Positions 9,063 through 61,479 of a stretch of 64,000 bases of DNA are shown in pieces (position 1 is the first letter of the stretch; the number at the start of each line of letters is the position of its first letter). Made by a program: the position numbers and the translations under genes. The notes beneath the pieces are model-generated. The model saw nothing but the letters and a program-made list of their open reading frames with translations, ran no database searches and had not been told where the DNA came from. The DNA comes from Eledone cirrhosa. Lineage: Eukaryota. Location of the stretch: NCBI GenBank assembly GCA_964016885.1, contig OZ024757.1:9796001-9860000 (forward strand), in the 5' to 3' direction.

Positions 9063-9092
<30 letters not shown>

Positions 9093-9259
9093 ATGTGTGT
9101 ATATATATACATGCTACTGTATGTCTGTATACTTGTATGTATGTACTTATACATACTTACATTTAAGTATATTTTCCGCCTACACATAAATATAGTAACA
9201 TTTTTAATAGAAATACTATTAAAATTTCTTACTCTACGACTCCTAACCTTGCACACAAC

Positions 9260-17788: not shown

Positions 17789-17845
<57 letters not shown>

Positions 17846-17973
17846 AAAGTTTTATTTAAAATTGTTGGGTTACAACAAGTAAATATTTTATAACTGATAT
17901 AAAGCACTCGACAAGTTTTGGGAATAGATATACGATATTAAACAAATGGAAACTATATTTATAAAACCATATT

Positions 17974-18039
17974 TATTTCATTATACATATTTCAGGGATA
18001 CCATATTAAAAATATGGCATGCCTTCGTCAGATAAAATA
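17974..18039 (-). ncRNA. Type I hammerhead ribozyme (PLE pLTR), mirror copy
   Basis: Reverse complement of 23792-23857. Confidence 0.78.
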
Positions 18040-18558
18040 CAATATATAAACAGTTTTATAAATAATTTTGACGTACCATATTATAAGCGACCATTATATT
18101 AGGAAGCTGTCTGGATAATGAATTGTTTATAATTATTTAGTTATAGTGTTAAGTACAGTTAGAAGAAAGACGGAGAGAAAGAAACGGAGAGAAAGAAAAG
18201 GAGAGAGAGTAAAAATATATAAATAGATAGGAGAAAGAAATAAGAGAGGCAAACGAAAGCAACAGATAAATAATAATTCCCCATACATATAGAGAAACTC
18301 AAGAGAGAGGGAGTCCTATATAGAGAGAGAAGGATAATAATTATTTAAAAGATAAAAATTATTTAAAAGATTTAGAAGACCCAGTGATTCTACGGATGCC
18401 CTTATATTTAGTATAGAAATTTATCTTGCGTAAAATTTAGAGTAGTTTATTACATCTTTGTTTATATTTAGGAAGAAGGTTTAAAAAGAAAAAGGTGAAG
18501 GAATCAAATGATTTATCGTCAGGTTTCATATATTAACTAAATTTCTTAATTAATTATA

Positions 18559-20724
18559 CTACATTTTAAATTTATATTTATATTTAAACGTTGAGTTCAA
18601 TCTATGTCTGCAGCAACTGAATAAATTACTCCTTAAATTAAGGAAATTTTTGGACTTTAATATAAAGAATACCTCCTCCACACAGAGATCACATGTCTCT
18701 GATGAGGAATTAAAAGGTATCCCTTTTGAGACAATATTCCAAAACATCGAATACTTAACATTATCTCGTTTAAGTTGCCAGAGTAGGCTTGATAGCGAAG
18801 TTGAGGATTTTTTGTTTGGATCTGTGAAAGAATTCTTATGATTATTGAAGCGAAGTTTAAATTCTGTCGAGGTGGAACCAACATAGTTGAAAGAATTTAA
18901 GTTAGTTTTAACATTACAATTGTATACTACATTTTTAACTAAGCAATTGTTATTTAACGGACAGTTAGATTTATTTCTACAGTTACAGTTATTTAATTGA
19001 ATATTGTTTGGGTTATTATTGGTATTTTGGTTAGGTTTTAAATTCCTATTATTAATTCTGTTAATATTTTGTGATAAATTTTTGGTGGACGAGTCAGTTA
19101 ATTTTATAGTATGTCTATTAAAAATTGAGTGATATTTATGTGTTCTAGGGAAGCGTTTGTCAAGAGCATTAAAGAATAGTTTAGCAATATGGGTTTTAAT
19201 ATTTAGTGAAAAAAAGGGGGGGGGGGCAAACCATATTATATTTCTAGTTCTATTTCTTTTTCGGCTTTTGGAATTATTGTAATGTTTTCTATTATAGTTG
19301 TTAATGTTGTTACCGTAATTAAAATTGTTATTATTTTGGTTAGTTTGCTTATTATTATCGATGTACTTAATTTTATCACTATATCCTGCTCTAGCTAACG
19401 CTTCATTGTAATACTGCGCTTTTTCATCAAAAATATTTTTATTAGATGAAATTCTTGAAATTCGTTCTTGAACAGAGTTCACTATAGTATTTTTAACAGA
19501 TCTGGGGTGATTAGAGTTAAAATTGAGATAATTCAAGTTCTCATTTAGTTTGTGAAATGGATAGTGAAGACATGTGTTGAGATTTAGTGTTACATCCAGG
19601 AAATTGACTATTCTATGGTTATTCTCTATTTCTATTTTTAGATTAAGGTAATTAAAAAAATTGTATAATTTGTTTTCTTTTTCTATTTAGTTCACAGTTA
19701 TTATTTTCAATAAGTAAAAGCATGTCATCACGATATAATCCTCCGGTTACACCTGGTATTTTTTTATGCAGCGAATTAATTATAAATAGGTCCACAAGAT
19801 CCGTTACCTGAGCTGAGTCATATGATCCCATAGTTATGCTGAAATTATTATTTCTATCTGGCCTAGTCCATAGTTGGTTATTAAATTCTATCAATGTTTT
19901 CCTTGCCGATAATATAATGTGCATTTCATTGCTAGTTAGGTCTGTATGTTTAAATGCGTAATTTAGTGCCTTATTCAGTAGATTAGGAGTGATAGATGAA
20001 TAGTTGTTAGCAATATCAAGTTGAATAAACTTATTATTATAGTTATATTTAATTTCTTTAAACCACTCAATAACCTCACCAGTCCCCTTCCATAACTTTA
20101 AGTAAGGTAAATTATGTAAGTTTTTAATTTACCCTGTCTAGAATGTTTTTGCTAAGTTTTCCCATATCAGATTTTGATGGTGCAATCAATCTGACTGGCA
20201 AATCATTTTCAAAATTTCTTTTTTGATCTTTCATATTGATTTTGGGTTTCCTAGGCATGAAGGGTTGTGTTTTATTCTCAATGTCTAATTCATGCATTAT
20301 ACAAGATGCCTCTGTATTCATTTTTTCCAGTTCGTCCTTACTTGCTACCTTGTACTTTTTCCTTAGTTCTTTCAATATAAGGCCGTTATACATGTCCTTT
20401 TGTACTCCATAAAGGTTATTGGTTTTGTCCGATTTCACTAAGATCTTCTCTGTTTTTTCCAAGCCTTCAATATTATCCTTAATGCATCTTAGATAGTCCT
20501 GGCCTTTGAAGTTTCTCTTGAATTTGATTCCTTGGATGATAGAAATTATATCGTTTTCAAAATCCATTAATAGTTTGTTGGGGGTGGATTTTTTTTAGAT
20601 TTGAAAATTTTATCCAAATCTGAAACATTTTCATTTAGATTAGATTTATCAAAGTGGAAGGCACGCCACCTGATTCTTCTTATAAAAGAGTCTGATTTTT
20701 CTATTAATTGTTTAATAAAGTCAT
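18559..20724 (-). pseudogene. PLE RT/GIY-YIG ORF, frameshifted
   Basis: Pieces 20124-20567 (KSDKTNNLY, PVRLI), 19652-19924 (ITMGS, LYRDDM) and 18559-19536 (GIY-YIG). The N-terminal KQLIEKSDSFIRRIRWRAFHF lies at ~20650-20720. Confidence 0.88.
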
Positions 20725-20736
20725 GTAACGGACCTT

Positions 20737-21969
20737 GTGGGCCTATTTATAATTAATTCGCTGCATAGAAAAATACCAGGTGTAACCGGAGGATTATATC
20801 GTGATGACATGCTTTTACTTATTGAAAATAATAACTGTGAACTAAATAGAAAAAGAAAACAAATTATACAATTTTTTAATTACCTTAATCTAAAAATAGA
20901 AATAGAGAATAACCATAGAATAGTCAATTTCCTGGATGTAACACTAAATCTCAACACATGTCTTCACTATCCATTTCACAAACTAAATGAGAAATTGAAT
21001 TATGTCAATTTTAATTCTAATCACCCCAGATCTGTTAAAAATACTATAGTGAACTCTGTTCAAGAACGAATTTCAAGAATTTCATCTAATAAAAATATTT
21101 TTGATGAAAAAGTGCAGTATTACAATGAAGCGTTAGCTAGAGCAGGATATAGGGATAAAATTAAGTACATCGATAATAATAAGCAAACTAACCAAAATAA
21201 TAACAATTTTAATTACGGTAACAACATTAACAACTATAATAGAAAACATTACAATAATTCCAAAAGCCGAAAAAGAAATAGAACTAGAAATATAATATGG
21301 TTTGCCCCCCCCCCCTTTTCACTAAATATTAAAACCCATATTGCTAAACTATTCTTTAATGCTCTTGACAAACGCTTCCCTAGAACACATAAATATCACT
21401 CAATTTTTAATAGACATACTATAAAATTAACTGACTCGTCCACCAAAAATTTATCACAAAATATTAACAGAATTAATAATAGGAATTTAAAACCTAACCA
21501 AAATACCAATAATAACCCAAACAATATTCAATTAAATAACTGTAACTGTAGAAATAAATCTAACTGTCCGTTAAATAACAATTGCTTAGTTAAAAATGTA
21601 GTATACAATTGTAATGTTAAAACTAACTTAAATTCTTTCAACTATGTTGGTTCCACCTCGACAGAATTTAAACTTCGCTTCAATAATCATAAGAATTCTT
21701 TCACAGATCCAAACAAAAAATCCTCAACTTCGCTATCAAGCCTACTCTGGCAACTTAAACGAGATAATGTTAAGTATTCGATGTTTTGGAATATTGTCTC
21801 AAAAGGGATTCCTTTTAATTCCTCATCAGAGACATGTGATCTCTGTGTGGAGGAGGTATTCTTTATATTAAAGTCCAAAAATTTCCTTAATTTAAGGAGC
21901 AATTTATTCAGTTGCTGCAGACATAGATTGAACTCAACGTTTAAATATAAATATAAATTTAAAATGTAG
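20737..21969 (+). CDS. PLE RT C-terminus/thumb plus GIY-YIG endonuclease (5'-truncated copy, open frame)
   Basis: YRDD, FLDV, SNHP, CNCRNKSNC (CxCx5C linker), VYNC...YVGST, KLRFNNH, CDLC and CRH motifs. As recalled, these match Hydra-clade PLEs. The start is an internal GTG created by the inversion junction. Confidence 0.85.
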   Translation: MGLFIINSLHRKIPGVTGGLYRDDMLLLIENNNCELNRKRKQIIQFFNYLNLKIEIENNHRIVNFLDVTLNLNTCLHYPFHKLNEKLNYVNFNSNHPRSVKNTIVNSVQERISRISSNKNIFDEKVQYYNEALARAGYRDKIKYIDNNKQTNQNNNNFNYGNNINNYNRKHYNNSKSRKRNRTRNIIWFAPPPFSLNIKTHIAKLFFNALDKRFPRTHKYHSIFNRHTIKLTDSSTKNLSQNINRINNRNLKPNQNTNNNPNNIQLNNCNCRNKSNCPLNNNCLVKNVVYNCNVKTNLNSFNYVGSTSTEFKLRFNNHKNSFTDPNKKSSTSLSSLLWQLKRDNVKYSMFWNIVSKGIPFNSSSETCDLCVEEVFFILKSKNFLNLRSNLFSCCRHRLNSTFKYKYKFKM

Positions 21970-23544
21970 TATAATTAATTAAGAAATTTAGTTAATATAT
22001 GAAACCTGACGATAAATCATTTGATTCCTTCACCTTTTTCTTTTTAAACCTTCTTCCTAAATATAAACAAAGATGTAATAAACTACTCTAAAATGTATAT
22101 GCTCCCAATGTATTAAATACATTTTACGCAAGATAAATTTCTATACTAAATATAAGGGCATCCGTAGAATCACTGGGTCTTCTAAATCTTTTTAATAATT
22201 TTTGTTAAATAATTTTTGTTTTTTATTTGTTTTTTACTCTAATAGCTTCTAACTAACTTTGCAATATATTGTTTGAAATATAGGAAGGATAGATTTCTGT
22301 AGTAAATATATGAAGCATATTGTTTTTGGCCTGAGATACTCTATAGTGTGTTGAAAGTATTTTAATGTTTTGATGTTTCTGTGCTGATATATTGATATTT
22401 GATTATCTCTATACAAAGGCCATATGGGTATTAACATGCATATAGAAAGTTTATAGAGTTTATTTTATGTGTTCATGTGTCTGTATATGTGCGTAAAGAT
22501 GCTGGAAAACTCACGCAGATATTTTATATATACATATATATATATATTTAGGTATGGTTCTGTATATGTTACAGATATGCATAATATTAAATACATGAAC
22601 GGTAATCATATATGTGAGGACATGAATATTAATCGTATATTTTATGTATATATACAGTGAAATTTTTATAACACAAGACATTTTTTTATGACACAAGAAA
22701 TTATAGAGTTGATCAAGTGAAGTCATATGTATGTCTATATTATTGACTAGAGTTAGACATAATTTTCTCTTTTTTCTTTTTTCAGGAAGTACATATACGT
22801 GTATATATATATACATATATATTTCCGTATTTTTATAAATAGGGTAATTTTTTGAAGGTTTTATCTTAGTTTTTGGTATATTAACCTCAGAGTTTTAAAC
22901 TAAACATATGGTCATTATTGAACAATGTTATTTTCTCATATTATATATATCTATGTCTCATTCATGAATATTGATATTTGCATTTTTATTATCCATTTCA
23001 TATGAATTGATAATTCAAATTGATATGACATGACGTAAAGATGTAACTGTATCCTTCTCTCTCTATATAGCACTTTCTCCTCTCTCTTGAGTTTATCTTT
23101 ATGTATGATGAATTATTATGTATCTGTCGCTTTCGTTTGCCTCTCTTATTTCTCTCTTGTTTCTTTTTCACTTCCTCTTATCTATTTATATTCTCTCTCT
23201 CTCTGTTTTTTCTCCTCCCCCCTCTCTCTCTCCGTTTTTTCTTTTTTCTTTCTCTCCGTCTTTTTTCTATCTGTGCTTAACACTATAACTAAATAATTAT
23301 TATCCTTCTCTCTATATATAGGACTCCCTCTCTCTTGAGTTTCTCGATATGTATGGGGAATTATTATTTATCTGTTGCTTTCGTTTGCCTCTCTTATTTC
23401 TTTCTCCTATCTATTTATATATTTTTTCTCTCTCTCCTTTTCTTTCTCTCCGTTTCTTTCTCTCCGTCTTTCTTCTAACTGTGCTTAACACTATAACTAA
23501 ATAATTATAAACAATTCATTATCCAGACAGCTTCCTAATATAAT

Positions 23545-23721
23545 TGTTTCTACTTTAGGCACAAGGCCAGCAATTACCCAGTGCATTACTGGTACTTTAT
23601 TTTATCGACCCCGTAAGGATGAAAGGCAAAGTCAACCTCGGCGGGATTTGAACTCAGATCGTAAAGGGACGTAACTATGCTGGAAAGCATGGCGTCCGAC
23701 CCTCTACCGATACTGCCAATC
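23545..23721 (-). mobile_element. tRNA-derived SINE with 17-bp TSD, inserted in one PLE arm
   Basis: TSD CAGCTTCCTAATATAAT at 23528-23544 and 23722-23738. A-box TGGCAGTATCGG, B-box GAGTTCAAATCC and core GCCTTTCATCC..CGGGGTCGATAAAAT. The mirror arm (~18093-18110) has the empty site. Confidence 0.9.
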
Positions 23722-23791
23722 CAGCTTCCTAATATAATGGTCGCATATAATATGGTACATCAAAATTATTTATAAAACTGTTTATATATTG

Positions 23792-23857
23792 TATTTTATC
23801 TGACGAAGGCATGCCATATTTTTAATATGGTATCCCTGAAATATGTATAATGAAATA
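23792..23857 (+). ncRNA. Type I hammerhead ribozyme (PLE pLTR)
   Basis: UAUUUUAU-CUGACGA-[AGGCAUGCCAUAUU uuu AAUAUGGUAUCCCU]-GAAA-UAUGUAU-A^-AUGAAAUA. Predicted cut at 23849/23850. Confidence 0.8.
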
Positions 23858-23897
23858 AATATGGTTTTATAAATATAGTTTCCATTTGTTTAATATC

Positions 23898-23936
<39 letters not shown>

Positions 23937-28711: not shown

Positions 28712-29480
28712 ACACACACACGCATACGTATGTGTCTATAATTTTTTTGGGGGAAAAGACCAATACATTCAGTTTGAATAAAATGGTGTTTGCACCCCCC
28801 CCCCCCTCTTTCCTTGATGCCATAAAGTATGTGCTTATTTTGATATTTTGCTTAATATTTAATCCTATCCTGAATGGAAGATATGAGCAAGATGAAGTAG
28901 GTCTGACCCATCTGATCTCAGACTCTGACAACCCGTCCAATCCATGCCAAGATGGAAAGTAGATGTAAAATGATGATGATGATGATGATGTCTACTTTAG
29001 AGCTGCATTATTTTTTTTTTTTTTGTTTACCTGTGTATATAGTATATCAGATACACAAGTTACACTACATCTATATGTGTATAGTGCTGCAACACTGTTT
29101 CCTTTACATATATATACACACACACATATGGATAATACCATACTCCATATATACATATATAAAGGAAACTGTTTCCTGTTTGATATCATCTTAGTTAATT
29201 CCTATGTCCTTCAGATTGGCCCCTTAAATATACTTTTCCAGGTGTGCCTTGCTTGTCCTCACTTTTACTTATCACCTATTGGTAGCCAACTTATAGCAGT
29301 TCTTAAAGGTCACTGTTCTGACCAATGTAAAACATTCTGGGCTAATCAGTATTGGAATTCTGTATTGTAGCATATTTACGTTTAAAGTTAAAGAAAAACT
29401 CCTGTAATATTTGCTAATTTTAGAGAGATTATACTCACATACATACATACGTATGTATGTATGTGTGTATATATATATAT

Positions 29481-29607
29481 ATATTTGAAAAAAAGGAAAA
29501 TGACTTCACTTGTAGTCTTTAAAAAATTTTTTATTTAATTTTATATTATATTATCAAAAAAATGTTAACACTACAAGTGAAGTCATTTTTTCCTTTTTTT
29601 CAAATAT
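29481..29607. repeat. Short fold-back (~36-bp arms) next to (TA)n
   Basis: ATATTTGAAAAAAAGGAAAATGACTTCACTTGTAGT / ACTACAAGTGAAGTCATTTTTTCCTTTTTTTCAAATAT. Confidence 0.75.
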
Positions 29608-29707
29608 ACCTAACTGTACCAAGGATCTCACACATTTTCCAATATATATATAATACACTGTGTGTGTGTGTATATATATTGTGTGTATATATGTATACAC
29701 ACACATA

Positions 29708-34585: not shown

Positions 34586-35909
34586 TAATTAAGGTTTTGG
34601 ACTCATGGTTGTAAAATAAGGAGTTTTGATTCTTGAACCTGGCCACACATTGACTTGAGCAAGATTTTTCATTTTATGTTGTTCCAGTCCACTCAGCTTA
34701 AATAAAAATGTGCTTGTATGTCAAAGGGCCAACCATGTTACACAGAATCTCCCTAAAGACTATGTTAAGGATGCATATGTCTGAGGAATGCTCAGCCACT
34801 TGTTAATTTCATTATTAAGCTGTTCCATTCTTCAAACAACTGGAACACTCATTGTCGAAACTGAAAGAGGTCCAACAGCAATGCATGTGTGTGTGTGTGT
34901 GTGTATGTATGCATACATGTATGTATGTCTTCTATTTAGAAAAATTATATGAATTCTTCCAGTAAAGAAGGAGCTAGTTTCTACCAAAGGACCAAATTCT
35001 CTTGATAGAATTTAAATAACAAAAATGGTGAGTGTCATTTGTTGAACTTTAGAAAAGTCTTGCATATCTTTACTGCTACATTCAGATTGTTTTTGTAAAG
35101 TATCACTTAGATTTTTACTAACATGTATGTATGAATAATCAGATGAAGAAAGAAGCTGGTCTCTAAGAAACAAAGGCTCCATTGTTAGAGTTTAAACAAC
35201 ACCAGACTAAAGAAACAATTGTTAATACGTTGAATAAACCCTATTGTACAGCCGACCACGTTATTCTTCACTCATTTACTATTATTATTCAAAGAACCGC
35301 TTACTGAGGAACTGTCTTGAATTGGCCACCCAACTAAGGAAACTTCTTGTTGAGTCAAACAACGCCGAATGTTAAAACTATCCTCGATACAGAGTAATCA
35401 TAACCTCTACTAGGATTACCTTAAATGATATCTCGTTAACTTATATATTTAGAATGTTAGGGAGTGACACTCTAGTTGATATATATAATAATAATAAAAA
35501 AAAGTAAAAAATGCTAATGGGATTTTTTTATAGAATAACAGCAAAACATTTATTTACAAAAAAGAAATTTATCATACCGGTTTTAGCCACGTGGGCTTCT
35601 TCATACTACGGAAGTAATAACATTTATAATGGAGTTGAGTTGGATAATAATAAGAATATGGTATAAAATAACATGCTTTACATACATATATATAGAAGTT
35701 GGTGGTGTTGACTATAACTGCAGCAGTGGTAGTGAAAGTAACAGAGGAGAACTAACTTGTTCTATGTTCTTGGTGTTGACCTCGACAGTTGAGGTCAACA
35801 CCATATATATATATATATATATAGGTATTAGAGGTGCAAATTAATTGCTTCCGTAGCCTGTATGCCAAGATGAGCACTTGATGTTCGTGGGGAGCAGAGT
35901 ATCAATAAT

Positions 35910-36092
35910 TGTTTCTACTTTTGGCACAAGACCAGCAATTACCCAGTGCATTACTGGTACTTTATTTTATCGACCCCGTAAGGATGAAAGGCAAAGTTAA
36001 CCTCGGCGGGATTTGAACTCAGAATGGCAAGGGCCGTAACTCTATGCGTCAAAGCATGGCGTCCGACCCTCTACCGATACTGCCAGTCCACC
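35910..36092 (-). mobile_element. tRNA-derived SINE, 18-bp TSD
   Basis: TSD GAGCAGAGTATCAATAAT at 35892-35909 and 36093-36110. Confidence 0.9.
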
Positions 36093-36162
36093 GAGCAGAG
36101 TATCAATAATAACAACAAATAGGGAACAAAGAATCAGTATTACATCATATACATATTTAATT

Positions 36163-36254
36163 ACATATTACATATGTTTCACTGTCGATCAGCTCGAGGA
36201 ACGATCGATTAATGATCGATGCTGACTCTGGAATCGGAAGCTCCTCAGATATGT
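36163..36254 (-). ncRNA. Type I hammerhead ribozyme with long stem II
   Basis: Minus strand: ACAUAU-CUGAGGA-[~60-nt imperfect stem II GCU...AGU]-GAAA-CAUAUGU-A^-AUAUGU. 6-bp stem I, palindromic ACAUAUGU stem III, GUA triplet. Confidence 0.72.
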
Positions 36255-36375
36255 GTTCACATATCTAACTTAATAGCACCGCCTGGCGAAGTCTTTCAAA
36301 TTAGGATTTGGACACCATGGCCCTCTCAAGTAGAGAGTTATTGTTTACTGTAGAGTAATGAGTCTACACATGAAC

Positions 36376-36467
36376 ATATATCAGAGGAGCTTCCAATTCC
36401 AGAGTCAGGATCGATCATTATTTGATCGTTCCTCGAGCTGATCAACAGTGAAACATATGTAATATGT
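36376..36467 (+). ncRNA. Hammerhead mirror copy with core change (CAGAGGA)
   Basis: Same fold as 36163-36254 but with U4 changed to A. Probably impaired. Confidence 0.55.
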
Positions 36468-36569
36468 AATTAAATATGTATATGATACAATACTGATTCT
36501 TTGTTCCCATATATTGTTATTATTATTATCATTATATATATATACACATTACCCACTCTACTACCCGAT

Positions 36570-39835: not shown

Positions 39836-39916
39836 ACAGTTGCATTTATCTTGCTTTATATTCATACGAGTTATCACCAAGTCACAATTATTATTATTAT
39901 TATTATTTTTTTTTTT

Positions 39917-42900
39917 TGAGTCTCAGTCATTGATGTTAGTTAACTGGAAAGTTTGTTGAAATGAATATCAAGCCACTACCTGCAGCCTCAGATATTCATG
40001 ACGTATCGGAGGGTTCTTGCTGTTCCCAGCAAGCATGCCTTTTGAAGCGTTCCAAAAAGCGTGAAGGGGCCAATTTTCTTTAACCATCCCTGGAAACTTT
40101 TTGAGATAGTCCCTAGTGCGCCTATGACAATCGGGATCACTTTGACTTCATGGCAGTTCCAAATCCTTTTTACCTCCCACTTTAAGTCCTGGTATCGGTT
40201 AATTTTCTCCCTCTCCTTCTCTTGCACTCTCGTGTCGAATGGGCAGGCCACATCCACAATCAGGCACGATCTTTTTTCTTTGTCCAAAACCACCAGGTCA
40301 GGTCTATTGCGTTCCAGTTTCTTGTCCGTCTGTATCCTAAAATCCCACAGCACCTTCACCTGATCGTTTTCTATCACCGACTCTGGCTTATGCTCACACC
40401 ACTTCTCAGAATGTGGTAAATTGTTTACTTTGCATAGGTGCCAGTGGATCACCCTGCCCATCACATCATGTCTCCAGCCCTTATAGTGAGTCTGGGCTAG
40501 GTGTTTACATTCGGATACAATGTGAGCCACAGTCTCCTCTCTCTCTCCACAGATCCTGCACAGTGGGCTAGCCTCCTCCTTGTAAATGTGGTGTTTCAAC
40601 CACTTCGTTTTGAGGGCCTGCCCCTGCGCAGCCATTAATATTCCTTCTGTAGCCTTTTTAAGGTCTCCTCTTTTAAACCAGTTCCATGTCTGTGGATATC
40701 TAAGTTCAGTTTACTCAAAGAAGGTACTATGAAGGGATTTTTCCTGAAGGCTGTTCTTTCTCCTTGATGTTATTTCCTCCTTGGACATCCCCTGGCCTAT
40801 TGTCCCCTCCTTCAGTACAGTTCTGAGCATTGGCTCCTTACTATCAGTCACGTATTTGTGTAGGTTGTTTTTCTCCATCTGAACACAGTCCTCTATGCTG
40901 ACAAGACCTCTTCCACCCTCAGATCTCCTTAAGTAGAGTCTATCGACATCACTCCTCTTGTGGAACATGTTGTAGATAGTCAATAGCTTCCTAGTCTTCC
41001 TATCCATTTCTTTTTGTTCAGCAACATTCCATCTCAGAATTCCCGCACTGTACCTAATAATAGACACAGCTCGGGAATTTACTGCACTTATGGCATTCCT
41101 ACTGTTCAGATGTGACTTTAATACGCTCCTTACTCTCCGAAGGTATTTCTTATCAATTCCTTCATTTTTTTGTTCTTGATGTCATCAGCCTCCAGAACGC
41201 CCAAATACTTGTATCCTTCCTCAGAGTCAATTTCCTTTATCAACTCACCTGTTGGTATCTGGATTCCGTTACTTCTGCTCAACGTACTCCTCCTCATCAC
41301 AATGACTCCACACTTACTAATACCAAATTGCATACATATGTCATTGCTGAAAATACGGACAGTGTCAACAAGCACACCCAACTCCTTCTCACTCTTCCCG
41401 AAGAGCTTAAGATCGTCCATGAAGAGGAGGTGATTGATGGTAAGCCCTCCCTTTTCCAACCTGTATCCTGCTCACACTTTTCGCAGTACACTGGTCAGGG
41501 GCATCAGGGCAAGGACAAACAACAGAGGGGACAGACTATCTCCCTGGAAGATACCTCTCTTGATCTTCACGCTTCCCAAGGATTCTCCAGTTGATGTTAA
41601 CTCTGTTTCCCAGGACTTCATACTTTTGCCCAACAACTGTCTGATGTTATCTGCCACCTTGAAGATCTCCAGGCTTTTGGTGATCCAAGAATGAGGCACC
41701 ATGTCAAATGCCTTTTTGTAGTCTATCCATCCCATGGCAAGACCAGTGTGTCTTCTCTTGCAATTCCTCATTACCATCTTATCAATAAGTAACTGGTCCT
41801 TTGTACCACGTGACTTCTTTCGGCATCCTTTCTGTTCGTCCGGTAACAAGTTGTTTGTGTGGAGGTGATGGTAGATTTCCTCAGACATAATTGTTTCTAC
41901 TTTTGGCACAAGGCCAGCAATTACCCAGTGCATTACTGGTACTTTATTTTATCGACCCCGTAAGGATGAAAGGCAAAGTCAACCTCGGCGGGATTTGAAC
42001 TCAGATCGTAAAGGGACGTAACTATGCTGGAAAGCATGGCGTCCGACCCTCTACCGATACTGCCAATAGACATAATGCTTGTCAACAGTTTCCACATTAC
42101 GGACAGACATGTGATAGATCTATAGTTGGTAACATCATTACCCTTGATTCGGTCTTTCATTATCAGAACTGTGGTACCTTTTGTCAACCACTCTGGTATC
42201 TCACCTGACATCAAGCAGTCATTGAACATGGTTGTCAGTTTCGGGTGGAGGGATGTTATGTTTTTAATCCAATACCTCTGCACACCATCTGGGCCAGGTG
42301 ATTTCCAGTTGGTTAGTTTTTTGGCCTGCCCCTTAAGAGTTTCAACTGTGATACTCAAATCAGTTTGTTGGTGTGCCTGTTCACTGATCTACTTCTGTAC
42401 TGTTTCAATCCACACAGCCCGGTCATTATGTTTAACATCCTGCTCCCATATTCCTCTCCAGAATGTTCTAGTTTGTTCCGCCTCAGGGATCAAGTCGTTG
42501 CCTCTTTCTTTCCCTTCAAGCTGTCCAAACAGCATCTTCTGGTTGTTGTCGAACATGCGGTTCTCTCTATACTGGCTGACTCTTTTCTCGTATCGCCTGA
42601 TTTTTGTACGCTTTGCTACAATGCGTTGCTTCAGTTCTTCTATGATAATATTTAGCTTTTTCCTCCGAGTTTTTTACTTTATTTCCAGTCTATTTTTAGT
42701 ATCTATGTTTTTTAGTGTCCCATTCAGTAGGGACTCAAGCTTTCCAATGTCATTTCTCATTTCCCTGATTTGACCACTCAGTCGTTTCTTCCACCAAGGC
42801 TCTGCTCTTTCTTGTCTGTTGTTTCCTCTCGCTTTTATACCAAGTAGTTTCCTCACCGTATTTGCTGTTGCTTTGAGGATATTGTTGTACTGGTGAAGGC

Positions 42901-44776: not shown

Positions 44777-47700
44777 CAGTTGCATTTATCTTGCTTTATG
44801 TTCATACGAGTTATCACCAAGTCACAACCAGTGACCTCAAGAGACAACAAGGTCCGCCATGTTCAAGAAAGAACATACATACTCACACATGCATCTTTAG
44901 TGTTTAGACTTGTGATGTACATATATTGACAGAATCTTCCTTAGTATATGGGCAGTTCCCATTAGTACTATCTTTTGTGTTTCTCCTATGCGCGGGTTTC
45001 CTGGGATTTGCGATAAGTAATCATTAGACCCCTTAGGTATCATTCCCAGAGCGCCTACAACCACTGGTATTGTTTTAGTTCTCAATTTCCACATTTTTCC
45101 AATTTCTATCTATACTTGCTCAATTTTTCAAATGTTTTTATAGATACATTCTTGTCTATTGGAACAGACATATCAATTAGCAGGCATACCCTCCTTTGAA
45201 AGTCCTTTAATATTATATCAGGTCTATTTGCATCTATTTTTCGGTCTGTTTCGATGCTAAAGTTCCACAAGATTGAGATGTGATCTTTTTCAAGTATGGG
45301 AGGTGGTTGATGCTCCCACCAATTCTTTTGATGGGGCAGGTCAAAATGCTTACACATTATCCAATGGTCTCTGGTTGTTTTTTGCATACAAGGCATAATG
45401 GGCTGCACCCATTTTTTATTATGTTGGCTTGGTAATTTTTTGTTGGCAGACACTGATCTTGTGCTGATATAATCAGTCCTTCAGTCTCCGATTTCAGTCC
45501 AGAAGATGCTAACCACTGATGGGTTAAAGTTTTGTCAACATCAGGATTGTTAGCTCGCTCTGGGTATTTTCCATATAGAGGCTTTTCTTGCCATTTCTTA
45601 GACAGTTTCTGTAGCAGTTCTTTCTTTGCAGTTACTTTTACCTGCTTTGCTTTTTCTGTGTTTTCCATTTCAGCAGTAAATGGGACTTCTGAAATTTGTA
45701 GTCCATTACTGTATCTTTGTGCATCTTTTGTAATGGAATATGATCTTTTGATGCTTTCGTGTTTCAAAACGAGTTTGATCATCCAATCATGTGATTCCCT
45801 TAGATATGTAGATAATCCAATTGTTGCAGTTTTCAACACAATGTCTAACTGGATTAACCCACGTCCTCCTTCTTTCCTAGGGAGATATATTCTATCTATA
45901 TCTGCCTTAGGGTGATGCATTCTGTGCATGGTTAAGAATTTTCGAATTTTTGTATCGAGCCTACGGATCTCTGTGCTTGACCAGTTGATGACATTGTAAC
46001 TGTAGGTTACTACTGGTATGGCAAGCGTGTTTATGGCATCGATCCTATTCCTTGCATTCAATTCCGTTCTTAAGATTGCTCTTACTCTGCGGTAACATTC
46101 CTTCCTTATCCTTTCCCTCATTGTCGAGTGCTTGATTCCGTCTCCTTCACAAACACCTAGATATTTGTAAGTTTTTTCTTGATCAAGTTCTCTTATCACG
46201 TTCCCCCGATCAAGATTAATGTCTGAACTCTTCAGCAGCTTTCCTCTGGTGAACGTTGCTTTGGCGCATTTATCTAGTCCAAACTCCATTTTAATGTCAT
46301 CACTGAACTGCTCCACAGTGGATAATAGCCCTTGCAATTGTTCATCATTTTTTGCAAATAGTTTCAGGTCATCCATGTAGAACAGGTGATTAATGGTTTT
46401 GTCATAGACTTTATATCCATGTTTTGTTTCATTGAGCATTTTACTTAATGGTATAAGTGCGATGTAGAATAAAAGCGGTGATAAAGAGTCACCCTGAAAA
46501 TTTCCACAATTAATATTAACTTCTCCAGCTTCCAGTGATTTTGTTTCACTATTCAAAAGGAGTGTCGTTTTCCATGTCTTCATACTGAATGACAAAAACC
46601 TCCTGACAACGGGGGATATTTTGAATTATTATTATTATTATTATTATTATTGTTGTTATTCCTTGAATCTCAGTCATTGATGTTGGTTAACTGGAAAGTC
46701 CGTTGGAATGAATATCAAGCCACTACCTGCAGTCTCAGATATTCAGGACGTATCGGAGGGTTATTGCTATTCCCAGCAAGCATGCCTTTTGAAGCGTTCC
46801 AAAAAGCGTGAGGGGGCCGATTTTCTTTAACCATCCCTGGAAACTTTTGGAGATAGTCCCCAGTGCGCCTATGACAATCGGGATCACTTTGACTTCATGG
46901 CAGTTCCAAATCCTTTTCACCTCCCACTTTAGGTCCTGGTATCGGTTAATTTTCTCCCTCTCCTTCTCTTGCACTCTCGTGTCGAATGGGCACGCCACAT
47001 CCACAATCAGACACGATCCTTTTTCTTTGTCCACAAGCACCAGGTCAGGTCTATTGTGTTCCAGTTTCTTGTCCGTCTGTATCCTAAAATCCTACAGCAC
47101 ATTCACCTGATCGTTCTCCGTCACCGCCTCTGGCCTATGCTCATACCATTTCTCAGAATGTGGTAAATTGTTTACTTTGCACAGGTGCCAGTGGATCACC
47201 CTGCCCATCACATCATGTCTCCAGCCCTTATAGTGAGTCAGCTTCCAGTGATTTTGTTTCACTATTCAAACGGAGTGTCGTTTTCCATGTCTTCATACTG
47301 AATGACAAAAACCTCCTGACAACGGGTGATATTTTGAAAATCTCTAAACATTTTTCAATCCAACTGTGTGGAAAACTATCGAATGCTTTTTTATAATCTA
47401 TCCAAGCAATCGATAGATTTTTGTGTCTATTATGACAATCTTCCAGTATCATTTTGTTAACCAGAAGCTGATCCTTACAGCCATATGAGCCTCGTTTACA
47501 CCCTTTCTGCTCAATGGGAAATAGGTCATTTGTTATCAGGTGGTCATATGTGTATTCAGTTAAGTCTGATTTTAAAATTTTATACATTGTGGTCAAGCAA
47601 GTTATCGGTCAGTAATTTTTGGGATTGTTTGTCTCATCATTCTTCGGAAGCAGGAATGTAATGCCGTTAACTAGCCATGATGGTATCTTTTCTGGCTCCT

Positions 47701-49668: not shown

Positions 49669-51294
49669 ATGGACTCTCCCAAACCGACTTTCACTGACGT
49701 CACCACCACCACCACAACTGAAACTAAAATTAATAATAACAAAAATAACGATAGCAACAACAACAAGAATGACATTAAAAAAACCACCCTGAGTTTTGCC
49801 AGAGTAGCAAAACAGTTCGAATTTTTTACGGTAACTCAGGAGGATTTAGAAAATGCCAAACAAATGGTAAAGAAAGATGGGTACAGGGTCAACCTCACCC
49901 CCACCTAATAAAATGGAGCATCGGCGCCTATGCACCGTGTCGTATCGAACAATAAATGTAAAATCGCGCCGAGTGGAACGGGCATCCGAGTCCCAAATCC
50001 AAAAAGCTTTAGGACATGTGTGGGCAAGAAAAACCCACATCAGACGTGGGCAGAAGTAGGGTACCGTGGACGTGTTCTTTGAAACACTAGAGGAGGCTAG
50101 AGAACACTCCATGGCCCCATTAAGAAGTGACGACTTCACACTCGTCCCAAGCTATTGTGGCCAGAGACTCGTAAAGATCAGGGTGACCCACGTTCCAGAT
50201 AATAGCAATAGCAAAAGAAAAGCAGGAGAACTGGTCCGGATCTGGGATGGAGCTCCTGATCCAAGCGGACCAAAAAAGCATTGAGGAGATCCCAGAGGTA
50301 ATAGACCTCACTGACGGCAGCCACCTCACAGTAATTGTCGAGGGCAGAAGGCCTAGGTGTGTCGTTTGTGGTGAAGGAACCCACCTAAGGGCTTTCTGCC
50401 CTCAGGCTAAAAGGTTGAGGCCACATCTCCTACCCACCCCTGTGACACAACCATCAACACCACCAGTAGCAGAGATGGCAGCAACAACTGTAGCAGCAAC
50501 AACAGAAGCAACTATAACAGCAACAACCCCAGCAACAGTAGCAAAACCAACACCACCACCACCAGCAAAACCAACACCACCACCACCCAACGCTTCAGAA
50601 CTAGCACCAGCGCCTACACCATCCACCACGCCACAACCAAAACTAACGCCTGTGGAGGATTTTCCACTCCCCGGCCTATCACAACTGGAGACAGATTGTG
50701 ACGACGAGGAGTGGGAAACGGTATCAGGAAAAAAAAAGAAACCAAAAAAGAAAAAATTCTCTTCCTTCCCCCTCCAAAAATAAAATACAGAGGGAAACAA
50801 ATAAATTAACAAACAAAAATGTTAGGACAGATATGCCACCATCCACACCAGCATCACCAACCCCATCAACCCAAACACCAACACCATCACCATCATTAAC
50901 CCCAACACCACCATCACCTACACCACAAAAGTCACCAAAATGTGAAACAGAAACAAACCCACAACAAACGCAAACAAAACAAAACAACCAAAACGATACA
51001 CACTACACAGCATTAAATTTGAACAACAAGCAATTATTACACTACATCCAACACAACACCAGCATCACAGAAAAAGACTACACAACAACCCCAAAATTCA
51101 CACCACCTCCACACATACAAATCACTCGCATCACACAGAAAACGTACATGACACTAAAACAAAAATTCCCCAAAGACATCGGAGACTTCCGACAAGCACT
51201 CTCCAGGAGGATTTATAAGGACATCCTTCCTGAGGAGGCCACAAGCAGTGAAAAGGATGGAAAAACCGTCCTTCCCCTACGAGAAGTAAGGTAA
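49669..51294 (+). pseudogene. Tx1 ORF1 (gag-like, CVVCGEGTHLRAFC zinc knuckle), disrupted
   Basis: Fragments 49669-49908, 49877-50059, 50066-50284, 50247-50783 and 50698-51294, homologous to ORF 55233-56504. Confidence 0.75.
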
Positions 51295-51328
51295 GTGGTC
51301 TTTCCCATCTTTTCCACTCCTATTCAAC

Positions 51329-54300
51329 ATGACCTCACTCAGAATAGGCAGCATAAATGCGCGTGGCTTGGGGTCGTCATGGAAGCAGGGCCACCTGCTC
51401 AAAGAACTCAGGTCACTAAACATAGATGTAGTGGCCATCAGCGAGACCAGAATCTCCGAAGCACGGGCCTTCGCACCGATCTTCGGCGGCTACGATGTGT
51501 ACGCATCTCCCAGCCGTCCGGGATCGGGGGGAGGAGTTGCTGTGCTTTTTCGGAGAGGTTTGGATCTTGCCATACGGGCCATCTTCCTGGACCCAGAAGG
51601 TAAGTTGGTGGTGCTGGACGTGACCAGCGGAGAAGGGCAAGCTTTCAGGTTAGTGGCCGTCTATGCCCCGACAGGAGCAGGGAGGCCTGATTTCTTCCGG
51701 CGTCTGGAGACCTTTCTTGGAACGTCCCGCTCTTTAGTGTTAGTGGGCGACTGGAACGGGATCTTAGATGCACGCTGGGATTGTGTGGGATTAGTGGATA
51801 GGGAAGGAGGGTGCAAGAGTCTCACCAACCTGCTCAGGCGTTTTCAACTGTCTGACAGGTACCGAATGGATTTCCCGAATGTACCAATGTGGACTTGGAC
51901 AAATCGCATAGGGTCATCCATATCAGATCTAGATAGAGTATTTTGTAGGGAAATAGATAGGTCTAGCATAGGCTGTCCACAATTCAAGATAGTCAGCTAC
52001 ACGGACCACAAATTCGTGATCTGTGTGCTTGACTTAGATAGGCTTCATAGACGAGGACCCGGCTACTGGAAGCTAAACGCGTCCTTACCAGCGCGCAAGG
52101 CCTACAGAGACCGGATTAGCGAACTAGTTAAGCGGGCGTTGATGGGGGCCATCGTCAACAACAAGTGGTGGTTTGCTCTGAAAAGAGCAATTAGAATAGA
52201 GTCCATTAGGTTTAGTAAGGCTTTAGCAATAGAGAAAAATAGAGCAGAGGGAGAATTAGTTAGAAAATTAGACGAGGCGCTTAGCAAAGGCATCGCGCCC
52301 GACGTACTTGCGGCGAAATTGGCCATTGACCAATTCTTCAATGCAAAGCACGATGGCTGCGTTGTCAGAGCTAGGGTGCGTGCTCTCAGACACGAGGGGA
52401 CGAAAGCCGTTCGATGGGCCCGCGTGGCGGAGGCGCTTCGTGGCAATAAAGCCACGATCCGGTCTTTGGTGGACCACGACGGGCGCATGCTACTCGATCC
52501 CGGGCAAATGTGTGAAGCTTTTCAGCGACACTTCGCTCAACTGTTCGGGGGCAGTGGCGGGCCGGATCGAGGGATGGACTTTAGTGTCTACCTCGACGGA
52601 CTGCCGCGGCTTTCGGCCACTGAGGCGGAGTGTTGCGAAAAGCCGATAACAACCGCTGAAGTACGGGAGACAATGACTGGCTGCACAAGGGGTAAATCGC
52701 CTGGTTTAGATGGTCTGCCCTATGAACTTTACGTACAAATGCCAGACTGGTTCGGAGGCCTCTTGGCGGACGTCTACTGCAACTGGCAACAGAACGGGAG
52801 AATTCCCAGCTCTGTGAGCCGAGGAGCGGTGGCGCTGCTGAGAAAGGATCCGAACAAGGGGTATAATATAGATAATTTTAGGCCCATAACTCTGCTAAAC
52901 ACAGAGAACAAGATTTTGGCCAAGGTGCTAGCAAAGAGGTTGGCGCTTGTCGTTGGTGGTCGGTGGAAGAGGCACAGACATGCGCCATTCCCGACAGATC
53001 CATCCACGACAATCTCCACCTCATGCGATACATCGTAGAGAGGGTAGCTAGGTATCCTGGCACGGGTGGCTCTTTGATCAATTTAGATCAGTTGAAAGCC
53101 TTCGATAGGGTCGACCATCGTTACCTAGCGGCAGTCCTGAGGGCGGCTGGCTTTGGGCCCGTCTTCAGAGGCTGGATCGCTGCCATGCACAGCGACATCT
53201 GCTCTGTAGTGAGAGTGAACGGTCACCTTTCGGACCCGTTCAACATCATGCGCTCGGTCCGTCAAGGATGTCCCCTCTCGTCCCTATTGTACGTATTGAC
53301 TCTCGAGCCATTACTGCACAAACTGGAGACGTTGAGGGGGGTCCCGCGCGAACTAGGATGCGGAAGATCCGTGTCAGAATATGCGGACGATGTCACCGTA
53401 GTGGTGTCGAACGCCAAACACATCGAGGCGATCGGCACTACACTAAGAGAATACGAAGCGGTGACAGGAGCAATGATCAACCAGGAAAAGTGAGTGGGCC
53501 TGCAGCTCGGCACCTGGAGAGGCAGGTCCATGCCGTCCAACAGCGTCGTCGGGAGCTGGACGGACGGACCGGTAAATTGCTAGGGGTCTGGTTCGGTCCA
53601 GATCTCCAGACGGACAAAAACTGGGACGAGGTGACGAGCAGGGTGGCTTCTCTCATCCAGAAATGGGCCGTGAGGAAGCTATCCCTGAAAGGTCGAGCGG
53701 AGGTGGCTAACGCGTACATCGCGTCCGTCATCTACTACCGCCTGACCGTCGTACCTTGTCCTAAGCCCCGCCTGACTGCGCTGGAGCGTTTGCTCTTTCG
53801 CTTCTTGTGGAAGGGACGCGCTCCGATGGTCAGGCGGTCCATCTGCTGTCAACACCCGCTACATGGAGGGCTGGGCATGCCGTGGCTGATGATGCGCAGA
53901 CACGCGCTCAGGCTACGACATCTCCACCTCTTCCTCGACGGTGATCAGGTGTGGTCGCCGTTTGCTAGACACGTTTTTCCCCAGCTCGTCTCCTTGACGG
54001 AGCTGCAGTCCTGGGTCAAGCGAAGACCGAGAGGGAGCGCTTGGAGACTGGAACGTCTTCAGGCGCTCACAGCTTTCGACCAATCGGGCAATGTGATCGG
54101 TGGAAACTCCACCTTGGCGTTCTATAGTGGATTAGTGGAGGGTAAGAGCGACGACGTACTTGGAGAAACTCTAGGCGTCGACGAAAATCAACTAGCCAAT
54201 CTCTTCGGAAGGACTTTCGGGCCGGGGCCTATGGACAACTTCCAGAAATCCCTGGTCTGGCAGTGCTACCGGGGTGCTTTGCCAGTTCGGGATAAACTCT

Positions 54301-54746
54301 ACAGGCATGGAGGTGCCGTCAGCCGGGAATGCTCGAGATGCGCACAGGGCGACGAAACCGTCCTGCACGCACTCGTCCAGTGTCCGAGCATTGCTGACTT
54401 GTGGGTTTATGTCGAACACCTGCTGTCACGTGTAGGACGGATCCAGCTATCAGCTGAGTCCATCGTGAGGATTGCCCCGCCCCCTTCCTTTAGCCGGGAA
54501 GGGCAGGCAGTTTTTATCTGTCTGGTGGCCATGGCGAAAGAGATAGTATGGTGGACACGTTTGAAAGGGCTGAAGACGAGCACTTACCTCTTCGGTGATG
54601 CCCTGATTAACTTTTTCAAATTTCATTTGAAAAGGAAAATCAGGGTAGAGAGGGAAGTGCACTCTTCCCAGCATTTTGTTGAAAGATGGGTGAGAGAAGC
54701 AAGTATGGCCCGAATGAATGGGCCTTCTCTGAGTATGTGTCTGTAA
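51329..54746 (+). pseudogene. Tx1 ORF2 (APE endonuclease, RT, C-terminal zinc finger), frameshifted
   Basis: SINARGL, SET, VYAP, GDWN, TDHK, WKLN, SPGLDGLP, KAFDRV, VRQGCPLS, YADD, GGLG and CSRC...ETVLHALVQC. Frameshifts near 52960 and 53550. Confidence 0.9.
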
Positions 54747-56504: not shown

Positions 56505-57233
56505 ACGCACACACAGACAAGACACAGAGACACTCACAGACACATACCCTTTGTCTTCCAGCAGCGAGGATGAAGGAAAACCCAAAAGTGCAAAAAAACA
56601 GAGAAAACTCACAAAAAAAAGCCCCAACAAAACACAAAAACACACACAACAAAAAATACAGACACCACAAACGCAGACAATTCCCCAATAACATCAGCAC
56701 CATCAGCAACATCGACACCACCTCCAAAATCCCCGAAACGCAAACAACCTAAACAAACACAAGTACAAATAAACACACAAATACCTGAAATTGCAGACAC
56801 CACACCTACAACAAACATAGACATACCTCAAACAACACCACCAAAACCATCGCCACCACCTTCACCAAAACGAAAACAAATAAAACCACACCAACAAAAT
56901 GTTAAAAACTTCGTGCTTGTCAGAAGGGCCAACGATAAACTGATGGCCCTCTTAGCGCGAAGCGAGGACATTCAAACAGAGGGGGAGATTTTTGAAATGA
57001 GCACATTATGCGTGCCAGAAGATTTGCTTCTGGTCCGAATGTCACTCAATTCCTTCAAAGAAATTCGAGAGAGCTTTCCTCAAGACGTGGGAATCCCGAA
57101 TGTGAAACCCACATCAAGGCTTTTAAAGGGGTTCCCAAAAGAAACCCCACCAACCATGGAGGTCGAACCACGCGACCTTCACAAGACCCGGGAGGTAAGT
57201 AAACCTTCCCTCTCTCTCTCTTAGCTTACCAAT

Positions 57234-60200
57234 ATGGCCATATTAAGAGTAGGAAGTTTAAATATTCGCGGCCTGGGGTCACCCTGGAAGCAGGGTCGCC
57301 TGCTCAACGACCTCCGGTCGCTGGAAATGGATGTGATTGCCGTAAGCGAGACCAGAATTTCCAACACGCGTGCACTAGCCCCCATTTTCGACGACTATCA
57401 GATCTTCGCATCTGTTAGCAGGCCGGGAATGGCAGTGCTGTTTAGGAAAGGACTGGATCTCGAGGTAAGGTCGATCTTCCGGGACCCGGACGGTAAGTTG
57501 GTGGTCTTGGATGTGAGCAGTAGCGAAGGTGGTGCCTTTAGACTGCTGGCCGTCTACGCCAGTACAGGGGCCGGACGACCTGATTTCTTTAGGCGCCTGG
57601 AGACCTTTCTGGGTACGTCTCGTCCTTTACTGTTAGCGGGGGACTGGAATGGCATCTTAGACGCACGCTGGGATTGTGTGGGAGTAGCCGATAGGAGCGG
57701 GGGGTGCAAAAGCCTCAAGCACCTACTCAGCCAGTTCCAACTGTCTGACAGGTATCGACTAGATTTCCCCAATGTGCCAGTATGGACATGGACCAACCGA
57801 ATGGGGTCATCTAGATCGTATATAGACAGAATCTTCATTAGGAAAATAGATAGAAATAGTGTGGGCTGTCCACTTTTTAAAACGGTCGCCTATTCAGATC
57901 ACAAATTTGTGATCTGTACGGTCGACCTAAATAAAACGCGGAGGTTAGGACCGGGTTACTGAAAGCTGAACATGTCATTTCCGGCACGTAAGGCTTACAG
58001 GGACCGAGTCAATAAGTTAGTTAAGCAAAAGTTGACAGGGGGGATCATCAACAACAGATGGTGGGGGGCTCTCAAAAGAGAGATTAGAGTAACTTCGATA
58101 GAGTTCAGCAAAGAACTAGCGTTAGAGAAAAATAGAAAGTAGGGGGAGCTGGTAGATAAGTTAGACGAGGCTATTTGTAGTGGCATCGCAACTGACGTGC
58201 TAGCGGCGAGAATGGCATTAGACCATTTCTTCAATGCCAAACACGAAGGTTGCATTGTCAGAGCTAAGGCGCGTGCGCTGAGAAACGAGGGAACTAGAGC
58301 TGTTCGATGGGCCCGCGTGGCGGAGGCGCAGCGTGGTAATAAAACCACAATTCGGTCTTTGGCGGACCGAGACGGACACGAGATAAGCGATTCCAAGCGG
58401 ATGTGTGAGGCCTTTTGCCAGCACTTTGCTCGGTTGTTCGGGGAGAGTGGCGAGTCAGAGAGAGTAGCGGATTTCAGTCCCTACCTTGACGGCTTGCCGC
58501 GCATCTCGACGGTCGACGCTGAGCGCTGCGAAAGGCCGATTACTTCAGCCGAAATTCAGGATGCCCTTGTCGGCTGCATGAGGCGCAAGTCACCCGATTT
58601 GGATGGCCTGCCCTACGAGCTTTACGTAAATATGCCAGACTTGTTCTCCGAACTCCTCGAAGCACTCTACTGTAACTGGCAGCAGAATGGGAGTATTCCC
58701 AGTTCTGTGAGCAGGGGAGTGGTGACGCTGATAAGGAAAGACGAGAACAAGAGGGATACATTAGACAACTTCAGGCCCATAACTCTGCTCAACACAGAGT
58801 TTAAGATTTTGGCCAAGGTTTTTAGCAAAGAGATTGGCGCTTGTCCTCGAGGATTTGGTTGGGGAGGCGCAAACTTGCGCAATCCCAGCCAGGTCCATAC
58901 ACGACAATCTCCACCTCATGCGATACATCATAGAGAGGGTAGGGTGTAAACCTGGCTTCGGTGGGGCACTGATCCATTTAGATCAATCGAAAGCATTCGA
59001 TAGGGTCGACCATCGGTATCTGGAGTTTGTCCTCAAAGCAGCTGGCTTCGGCCCTGTCTTTAGAAGCTGGATCGTTGCAATGCACAGCGGCACACGCTCG
59101 GTGGTCAAGGTTAATGGCCACCTCTCGGAACCATTTCGGCTCTCCCGATCGGTCCGTCAAGGGTGCCCTCTCTCTTCCCTTCTGTACTCGAGCCTTTACT
59201 GCGGAAGCTGGAGCTGTTGCAGGGCATCCCGCTCGAACGGAGACGTGGAAAGGCGGTGTCGGCTTATGCGGACGACTTCACCGTGATGGTGTCGAACACC
59301 TCAGAAATCGAGGTGGTCGGCACCTTATTGAAGGAATATGAAAGGTTGACAGGAGCCAAACTTAACTCGGAAAAGTCGGTGGGCTTGCAGCTCGGAACCT
59401 GGAAAGGCAAGCCCATGCCGTCCAACAGCGTCGTGGGGCGCTGGACGGACGGACCAGTAAAGTTGCTCGGGGTTTGGTTCGGACCAGACCTCCAGGTGGA
59501 AAAGAATTGGGACGAGGTAACGAGCAGAGTAGCCAGTCTCACCCAAAAATGGGCTGGGAGGAAGCTATCACTGAAAGGTCGCGCGGAGGTGGCGAATGCG
59601 TACATCGCGTCCGTCATCTATTACCGCCTAACCGTCGTGCCTTGCCCACGTCCGCGCCTCGTCAAGTTGGAACGGCTCCTCTTCAAATTCTTGTGGAGGG
59701 GACAAGTTCCGTTGGTGAGGCGGTCCATCTGCTGCCAGCACCCTCTACGCGGAGGGCTGGGCATGCCGTGGCTAATGATGCGCAGACATGCGTTGAGGCT
59801 GCGACATCTCCAGATATTCTGCCTCAATGGTGAACAGGTGTGGTCGCCGTTTATCAGACGGGCCTTTCCGCAGCTCATTTCTTTGACTGAGCTGCAGTCC
59901 TGGGTCAAGAAGAGACCGAGACTGGGTGACTGGCACCTGGAATGTTGCCAGGCACTCACTGCCCTCTACCAAGCGGGCAATGCGATCAGTGGAACTTCCA
60001 CTCTCGAGTTCTATAGAGGATTAGTGGTGGGCAAGTGCGTTGACGCACTCGGAGAAGCTTTGGGCCTCGACGAAGTCGAACTGACCAGTCTGTACCGGAG
60101 GACTTTTGAGCCGGGGACGATGGACAATTTCCAGAAATCCCTCGCTTGGCAGTGCTACCGGGGGGCACTGCCGGTTCGGGATAAACTCTACAGGCACGGA

Positions 60201-61414: not shown

Positions 61415-61479
<65 letters not shown>

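Follow-up and report, generated by a model that had tools for sequence, protein, structure and literature searches.

The locus analysed here raises the question of what kind of element carries two hammerhead motifs on opposite strands, how such a structure came into being, and whether it could put a ribozyme on whichever strand is transcribed, as the original prediction had proposed. All positions given below refer to the window, i.e. the whole stretch of 64,000 nucleotides that was analysed.

The arms of the fold-back (36122-36259 and 36371-36508) are 138 nt long and 93% complementary. Followed to their true inner edges (36122-36262 and 36368-36508), the two copies carry 11 differences over 141 positions (8 transitions), and the pairing continues more weakly beyond the clean arms, out to about 36105 and 36525. 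The element as a whole spans about 35823-36532, comes from an AT-rich eukaryotic host and is flanked on both sides by (TA)n. The extent of 36105..36525 proposed originally did encompass real inverted arms, but it was too small, since the element runs to the left across a SINE to about 35823. The following features were distinguished, with the basis of each in brackets:

35803-35823, no strand: (TA)n tract at the long (tail) end, the likely insertion target (sequence)
35823-36121, minus strand: minus-arm tail, present on one side only, about 97 nt without the SINE and one copy of its target-site duplication (contigs)
35892-36110, no strand: later SINE-like insertion inside the tail (SINE 35910-36092) with the copies of its target-site duplication (repeat comparison)
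36122-36262, minus strand: left arm, resembling the 3' end of a pseudo-LTR (pLTR) (arm comparison, contigs)
36163-36254, minus strand: type I hammerhead, predicted cut after A36169 (pattern)
36260-36348, no strand: fragment of another high-copy repeat where the arms join, 88 nt, with a 3-nt overlap with the left arm (contigs)
about 36349-36368, no strand: decayed junction palindrome GTAGAG-6 nt-GTCTAC (loose ends and joint letters of contigs)
36368-36508, plus strand: right arm, an inverted short-ended copy, with weaker likeness to about 36525 (arm comparison)
36376-36467, plus strand: type I hammerhead with a U4->A core, CAGAGGA at 36382-36388, predicted cut after A36461 (pattern)
36533-36544, no strand: (TA)n tract at the short end (sequence)

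The SINE-like repeat, which we take to be octopus-like, is bracketed by an exact 18-bp target-site duplication (35892-35909 and 36093-36110) and has many copies within the 64-kb window. With this SINE set aside, the minus arm extends 144-145 nt beyond the cut site to the (TA)n at 35823. The short end of the arms is at 36121, 47/48 nt beyond the cut site, and the clean arm pairing stops there too. The longest stop-free frame over 35823-36532 comprises 61 codons. The element contains no ORF, and an RT or GIY-YIG ORF was looked for in this copy with a negative result. The earlier description of an ORF-less fold-back with twin inverted hammerheads is borne out in this respect, as it is for the arms and both motifs. 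The arm, the tail and the central insert each have no second copy elsewhere in the window.

A strict hammerhead pattern matched the window 6 times, but not a single time in any of 100 local shuffles. In the minus motif, stem I is formed by 36254-36249 and 36168-36163, the core CUGAGGA lies at 36248-36242, the stem II insert at 36241-36181 and GAAA at 36180-36177, while the corresponding insert of the plus motif occupies 36389-36449. The spans from core to cut (36248 to 36169 on the minus strand, 36382 to 36461 on the plus strand) show both motifs facing outward. Each has a 6-bp stem I, a palindromic ACAUAUGU stem III and a GUA triplet. The insert between core and GAAA measures 61 nt in both motifs and includes a CGAUC/GAUCG hairpin. 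The base of stem II reads G-U/C-G/U-A, with G10.1-U11.1 directly after A9; this pair is G-U rather than G-C. The pattern scan is thus in agreement with what had been predicted about both cores (CUGAGGA on the minus strand, CAGAGGA on the plus strand), the palindromic stem III, the GUA triplet and a stem II of some 60 nt with a CGAUC...GAUCG hairpin. The core of the minus copy had also been called intact, which is true of CUGAGGA, but in stem II of this copy a change at 36221 breaks a pair. The CUGANGA and GAAA-NUH parts of the core are present in the minus copy and in the majority of the family, and the plus copy fails at U4. U4 is required for hammerhead cleavage. Rfam returned no hammerhead match for the element or for any other hammerhead motif in the window, those of the neighbouring elements included, and exact-pattern scans of metagenome contigs, viral contigs and prokaryotic genomes gave no match.

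The window also contains two kb-scale fold-backs, at about 4967-8461 and 17843-23898, whose RT-endonuclease ORFs are broken and have 1134 homologues. Within the window, tblastn of these ORFs found matches only in both fold-backs and at 9107-9766. Pfam gave no name for the ORFs. The encoded proteins show DKT, GSYD, GLYRDD and CxCX5C, as read by eye against the description of the Hydra clade, for which the available sections of PMC8557442 list DKT, CxCX5C, RWK and the absence of CCHH. From motifs and homologues rather than a tree, both neighbours would be placed among the Hydra-type Penelope-like elements (PLEs). In both neighbours the stem II insert of the hammerhead is 31 nt long, with A-U closing the stem at its base, and it differs between the two elements by apparent compensatory changes.

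In each neighbour, (TA)n is reached 137-139 nt beyond the cut site on the minus arm and 49 nt beyond it on the plus arm, and the one-sided tails of 88-90 nt are two to three times as long as the published 30-40 bp. The distances from cut site to outer end are therefore +49 and +137/139 in the neighbours and +47/48 and +144/145 in the element, all of them bounded by (TA)n, and the earlier proposal that the element repeats the architecture of the kb-scale Penelope fold-backs is supported by this match. The arms of the two neighbours diverge by 0.3% and 1.6%. Alignment of the post-cut region of the element with those of the neighbours was not significant (p-values of 0.16-0.84), and the neighbours are therefore not shown to be parents of the family. 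The 9-mer TCRAGTGCT is found in all three long tails (5025-5033, 17903-17911 and 35873-35881) and in a LINE-like ORF (46124-46132), that is four times in the window against 0.5 expected for a word chosen after the fact. It was rejected as a sign of a common parent because of this post hoc choice and because the tail alignments were not significant.

Several other features of the window were recorded. A solo type I hammerhead motif of a third family lies at 28253-28199 on the minus strand, with a perfect-looking stem II of 36 nt and a palindromic AUGCGCAU stem III; it lies 43 nt before (TA)n, and no partner arm was seen. The sequences at 10703-10736 (about 0.9 kb behind the end of the third PLE ORF at 9107-9766) and 4885-4918 are related to each other and hammerhead-like, consisting of CAGAAGA, a short hairpin and GAAA, and both share the U4->A change of the plus arm. 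Short imperfect fold-backs at 8871-9172, 12-157 and 29480-29608 gave no hammerhead pattern in the scans, and in the first of these, (TA)n-rich arms enclose three CCGAACATT repeats plus one inverted copy. LINE-like copies with RVT_1, AP endonuclease and zf-RVT matches are located at 39887-41792, 45360-46625, 51290-54746, 57225-60634 and 61459-63371.

The element was further compared, at 80% likeness, with public contigs of four out of nine listed sequencing runs, namely X1 and X2 (one sample, organism A), X4 (organism B) and X5 (organism C). The numbers of aligned contigs were 3412, 3385, 3332 and 168, respectively; contigs of the central insert are counted in, and the figures should not be read as copy numbers. 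Depth over the arms was high in organisms A and B, in both of which the arm is an abundant repeat, and next to none in organism C. Eighteen X1 contigs continue from 36093 into letters that match 35862-35891 at 27 of 30 positions. Since they skip from 36093 to the letters of the tail, other copies own this tail without the SINE. The short end also recurs, as 34 X1 and 39 X2 contigs switch to TA-rich DNA at 36121.

At the inner edge of the arm, 55 (X1), 50 (X2) and 85 (X4) contigs proceed into a palindrome, GTAGAC-TCGC(GC)-GTCTAC, and then diverge. A decayed form of this palindrome survives in the window at 36350-36367. Beyond the palindrome, loose ends agree at 0.59-0.69 among the 24 listed of 972. 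Two X4 records (36264 to 36373 and 36257 to 36446), among the 15 listed of 81 joints, read arm-palindrome-arm with a single palindrome. In the eight joints examined, the first arm extends to within 4-16 nt upstream of the core, and the second arm begins at variable points with offsets of -23 to +73 from C3. None of the listed contig pieces spans the whole element, and short-read contigs handle palindromes badly.

The segment 36260-36348 was deep in all three organisms, organism C included. It is a piece of another repeat, because contigs of all four runs extend into other shared sequence before 36260/36264 and behind 36346/36348; no source for this 88-nt piece was found elsewhere in the window. 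The idea that the spacer of about 111 nt is the family's own sequence was rejected, as most of it consists of this piece. The left continuation of the inserted repeat shows, on the minus strand, a GGCC hairpin followed by GAAAC, with an interrupted CUGA..GA about 65 nt upstream, and it may be another ribozyme-bearing repeat.

We also examined how sequence variation is distributed over the hammerhead. Most of the family depth aligns to the left arm, which has T at the U4 position. At 36383, a T that restores CUGAGGA accounts for 42% (X1) and 82% (X4) of the depth there. CUGAGGA is the common core of the family among the public contigs, and a CUGANGA core, on which the original prediction had been made to depend, is indeed found. 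Among the 40 listed of 71 variant rows, the distal 55 nt of stem II hold 27, the flanks 5, and the 37 nt formed by the core, stems I and III and the base of stem II a single one, namely the A->T change at 36383; the other 7 lie in the central insert and were excluded. The skew between 1 and 27 rows has a binomial p-value of 1e-5, a figure weakened by the preselection of rows, by the separate treatment of arms and double alleles, and by about ten CpG rows. On these grounds the core looks kept and the outer stem II variable. Covariation within stem II is no more than hinted at by variant shares that are unphased. The variant at 36221 restores the stem II pair G21-C43 in 91-94% of the depth, C5U and A57G each convert a mismatch to a pair, and G25A (53%) and C39U (61%) in X4 would fit a swap of G-C to A-U, both being CpG sites with unphased shares. 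By contrast, pairs are lost through A22U (45-70% in X1) and through U27A (60% of the depth on the right arm in X4), unless the partner changes are among the other 31 rows.

Taken as a whole, the element is a real, decayed PLE-type fold-back of an abundant family. It very probably represents a head-to-head pair of a hammerhead-bearing repeat that would correspond to the pLTR end of a Hydra-type PLE and would have been copied by a PLE RT-endonuclease encoded elsewhere. A PLE origin is indicated by a geometry equal to that of two neighbours with PLE ORFs, by the presence of the tail and the short end in other copies, and by a hammerhead that fits the published Hydra rows. Against it count that no ORF or parent is linked to the family, that its post-cut region does not align significantly with those of the neighbours, that the tail is longer than published, and that even a single arm pays more than the neighbours do to reach the active monomer fold.

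A possible course of events would begin with a PLE protein, made elsewhere, that nicks both strands of a (TA)n target. Reverse transcription might then start at two internal RNA sites, at about +48 and +144 from the cut site, giving one short arm and one tailed arm; the unequal outer ends favour two such primings. The available sections of PMC11167929 explain the PLE tail by two internal RT start sites, with the tail as the stretch that separates them, based on in vitro work with an anole element, for which ribozyme cleavage was not needed for insertion. Copying would reach the short palindrome at the 5' edge of the unit, where two self-complementary cDNA ends could anneal, or one could snap back, to leave one shared palindrome. 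A proposed self-priming has likewise been put forward for junction palindromes (PMC3846280, available sections). The 88-nt piece of the other repeat would have been patched into the junction, probably by template switching, and the SINE would have landed in the tail later. The hammerhead would be inherited cargo, with predicted dimer cleavage through the palindromic stem III in a single-arm or tandem precursor RNA.

An alternative that we consider possible, though doubtful, is a self-standing, non-autonomous mini-PLE family of about 260 nt. Its RNA would start at the fixed self-complementary palindrome, its fold-backs would be programmed, and its hammerhead would cut with the 61-nt stem II, which might possibly dock a PLE protein. 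If this were true, length-limited searches would have missed PLE ribozymes with a long stem II, possibly including some of the Naiad 'half-core' cases.

The locus could, improbably, be a rearranged copy of a non-LTR retrozyme, i.e. a tandem, circRNA-forming hammerhead repeat. The element does share with retrozymes its small size, abundance, type I hammerhead and lack of an ORF, and animal retrozymes have been argued to derive from PLE pLTRs (available sections of bioRxiv 10.64898/2026.07.22.740005 and PMC7229834). However, the arms are inverted and not tandem, no monomer-length head-to-tail joint was present among the 15 listed of 81 joints, and the ends sit at fixed short and long positions of PLE type within TA-rich DNA.

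The remaining question is whether the fold-back could be retained as a two-way device, able to cut transcripts of either strand, and this was approached by folding. With G10.1-U11.1 forced, the minus insert is predicted to form a single irregular rod of -13.1 kcal/mol, which exceeds the free minimum of this insert by 0.2, and the plus insert reaches -15.2 kcal/mol compared to a free minimum of -17.4. Closure of all three stems (I, II and III) around the core is possible, stem III having 2-3 bp in the monomer; in a dimer, stem III self-pairs across 8 bp (-7.0 kcal/mol). For the motif alone the active monomer lies 6.5-7.1 kcal/mol above the MFE. Bringing a single arm into the active monomer fold costs 12.6-15.8 kcal/mol, compared to 3.4-6.1 in the two neighbours, and the folding z-scores of single arms are modest (-1.6 to -2.0). 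Pairing of the arms in read-through RNA yields -244 to -251 kcal/mol, and 112-122 kcal/mol must be paid to reach the active fold, in RNA of nascent length too. Moreover, whichever strand is read through, the antisense arm is the first to be transcribed.

A two-way ribozyme is therefore very unlikely, because arm-to-arm pairing imposes this cost on the active fold, and the hammerhead of the present copy is predicted to be silenced by the same pairing. The motif is indeed present on both strands, and the pLTRs of A. vaga have been proposed to hold bidirectional promoters (PMC3846280, available sections). Against such a device, however, stand the energetic cost in both read-through and nascent RNA, the U4->A change in the plus core, and the drift of the arms, which touches core and stem II and amounts to 11 of 141 positions, compared to 0.3% and 1.6% in the neighbours. 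In addition, opposite twin motifs arise as a by-product of PLE insertion according to the available sections of PMC8557442 and PMC4209133. The original proposal of a ribozyme on whichever strand is transcribed could thus not be upheld.

A MITE or foldback DNA transposon, with a hammerhead-like pattern that its long inverted repeats contain by chance, would account for long inverted arms, abundance, TA flanks and the missing ORF, but this highly improbable reading is largely refuted by the asymmetric ends, the one-sided tail, the variable inner truncation and the arms without a partner in the contigs, as well as by the 6 hammerhead patterns against 0 in 100 shuffles and a geometry equal to that of the ORF-bearing PLEs of the window. 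That a solo copy was turned into a fold-back later by break repair at this locus is least probable: although foreign DNA with a 3-nt overlap at the junction resembles a repair patch, other copies share the arm-palindrome-arm junction but lack such a patch, and a local duplication would not choose the family's short end, at which the right arm stops.

As an architecture, the PLE-type fold-back described here is ordinary, and its value is narrower. It belongs to a natural, abundant family in which predicted PLE hammerheads exceed the length limits of the usual descriptors and of Rfam; the core searches in the available sections of PMC8557442, for example, allowed 7-17 nt. PLE hammerhead counts are therefore likely to be too low. 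In addition, short copies in their thousands, with two fixed 3' ends and a palindrome fixed at the junction, would lend themselves well to the question of how PLE inverted repeats originate, as they could separate twin cDNA annealing from snap-back, a point left open in the available sections of PMC3846280 and PMC8557442. A published description of the family was not found in the open-access literature, and a search of the PMC8557442 supplement with six short strings from the element and its insert gave no match, although line breaks and cut runs in that file may hide matches.

The comparison with known systems, for which we relied on the available text and supplements of the cited papers, is closest for the insertion unit of endonuclease-bearing (EN+) PLEs (Arkhipova et al. 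2013, PMC3846280; Craig et al. 2021, PMC8557442; Frangieh et al. 2024, PMC11167929). The element shares with it head-to-head inverted arms of pLTR size, a shared junction palindrome, a one-sided tail, a (TA)n target, unrelated DNA captured between pLTRs, and a hammerhead in the pLTR together with a palindrome at the inverted junction. Specifically, inverted 5'-truncated copies with a one-sided tail and (TA)n bias have been published (PMC8557442), as have pLTRs of 181-218 bp with palindromes of 15-38 bp at their 5' edge, at which inverted pLTRs overlap, and DNA captured between solo pLTRs (PMC3846280). The element differs in having no linked ORF and a tail of about 97 nt instead of 30-40.

With the minimal PLE hammerheads of Cervera and de la Pena 2014 (PMC4209133), which are described as dimer-dependent and weakly active, the element has the palindromic helix III and the predicted dimer cleavage in common. 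Its layout corresponds to the twin motifs that were found there on opposite strands, 100-700 bp apart, and read as truncated PLEs. The consensus of that study has an unpaired base after A9 and G10.1-C11.1, whereas the element has neither, although 9 of the 44 rows in Fig. S3 share its U11.1; helix II inserts in these 44 rows are at most about 24 nt by eye, compared to 61 nt. The animal non-LTR retrozymes (PMC7229834; bioRxiv 10.64898/2026.07.22.740005) are equally small, ORF-less and abundant, carry a type I hammerhead and are probably moved by PLE proteins. Unlike the head-to-head element with its PLE-type ends, they form head-to-tail tandem repeats yielding circRNA.

Finally, the Hydra clade shares with the element the (TA)n target and a canonical-type hammerhead. 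The Hydra-clade hammerheads in File S2 of PMC8557442 are of type I, with a CUGANGA core and a near-palindromic AC..GU stem III, and, counted by eye, 18 of 26 rows have U before GAAA and 12 of 26 are cut after A, as in the element. They differ in stem III (9-10 nt compared to 8 nt) and, above all, in stem II. Two plant PLE-X1 rows, flagged as deviating, reach stem II lengths of about 48 and 54 nt by eye, and eight Naiad 'half cores' are 35-50 nt apart (both PMC8557442). The architecture is already published; what is new is the long stem II, whose 61-nt insert is over twice as long as the longest of the 26 published Hydra rows (at most 26 nt by eye).
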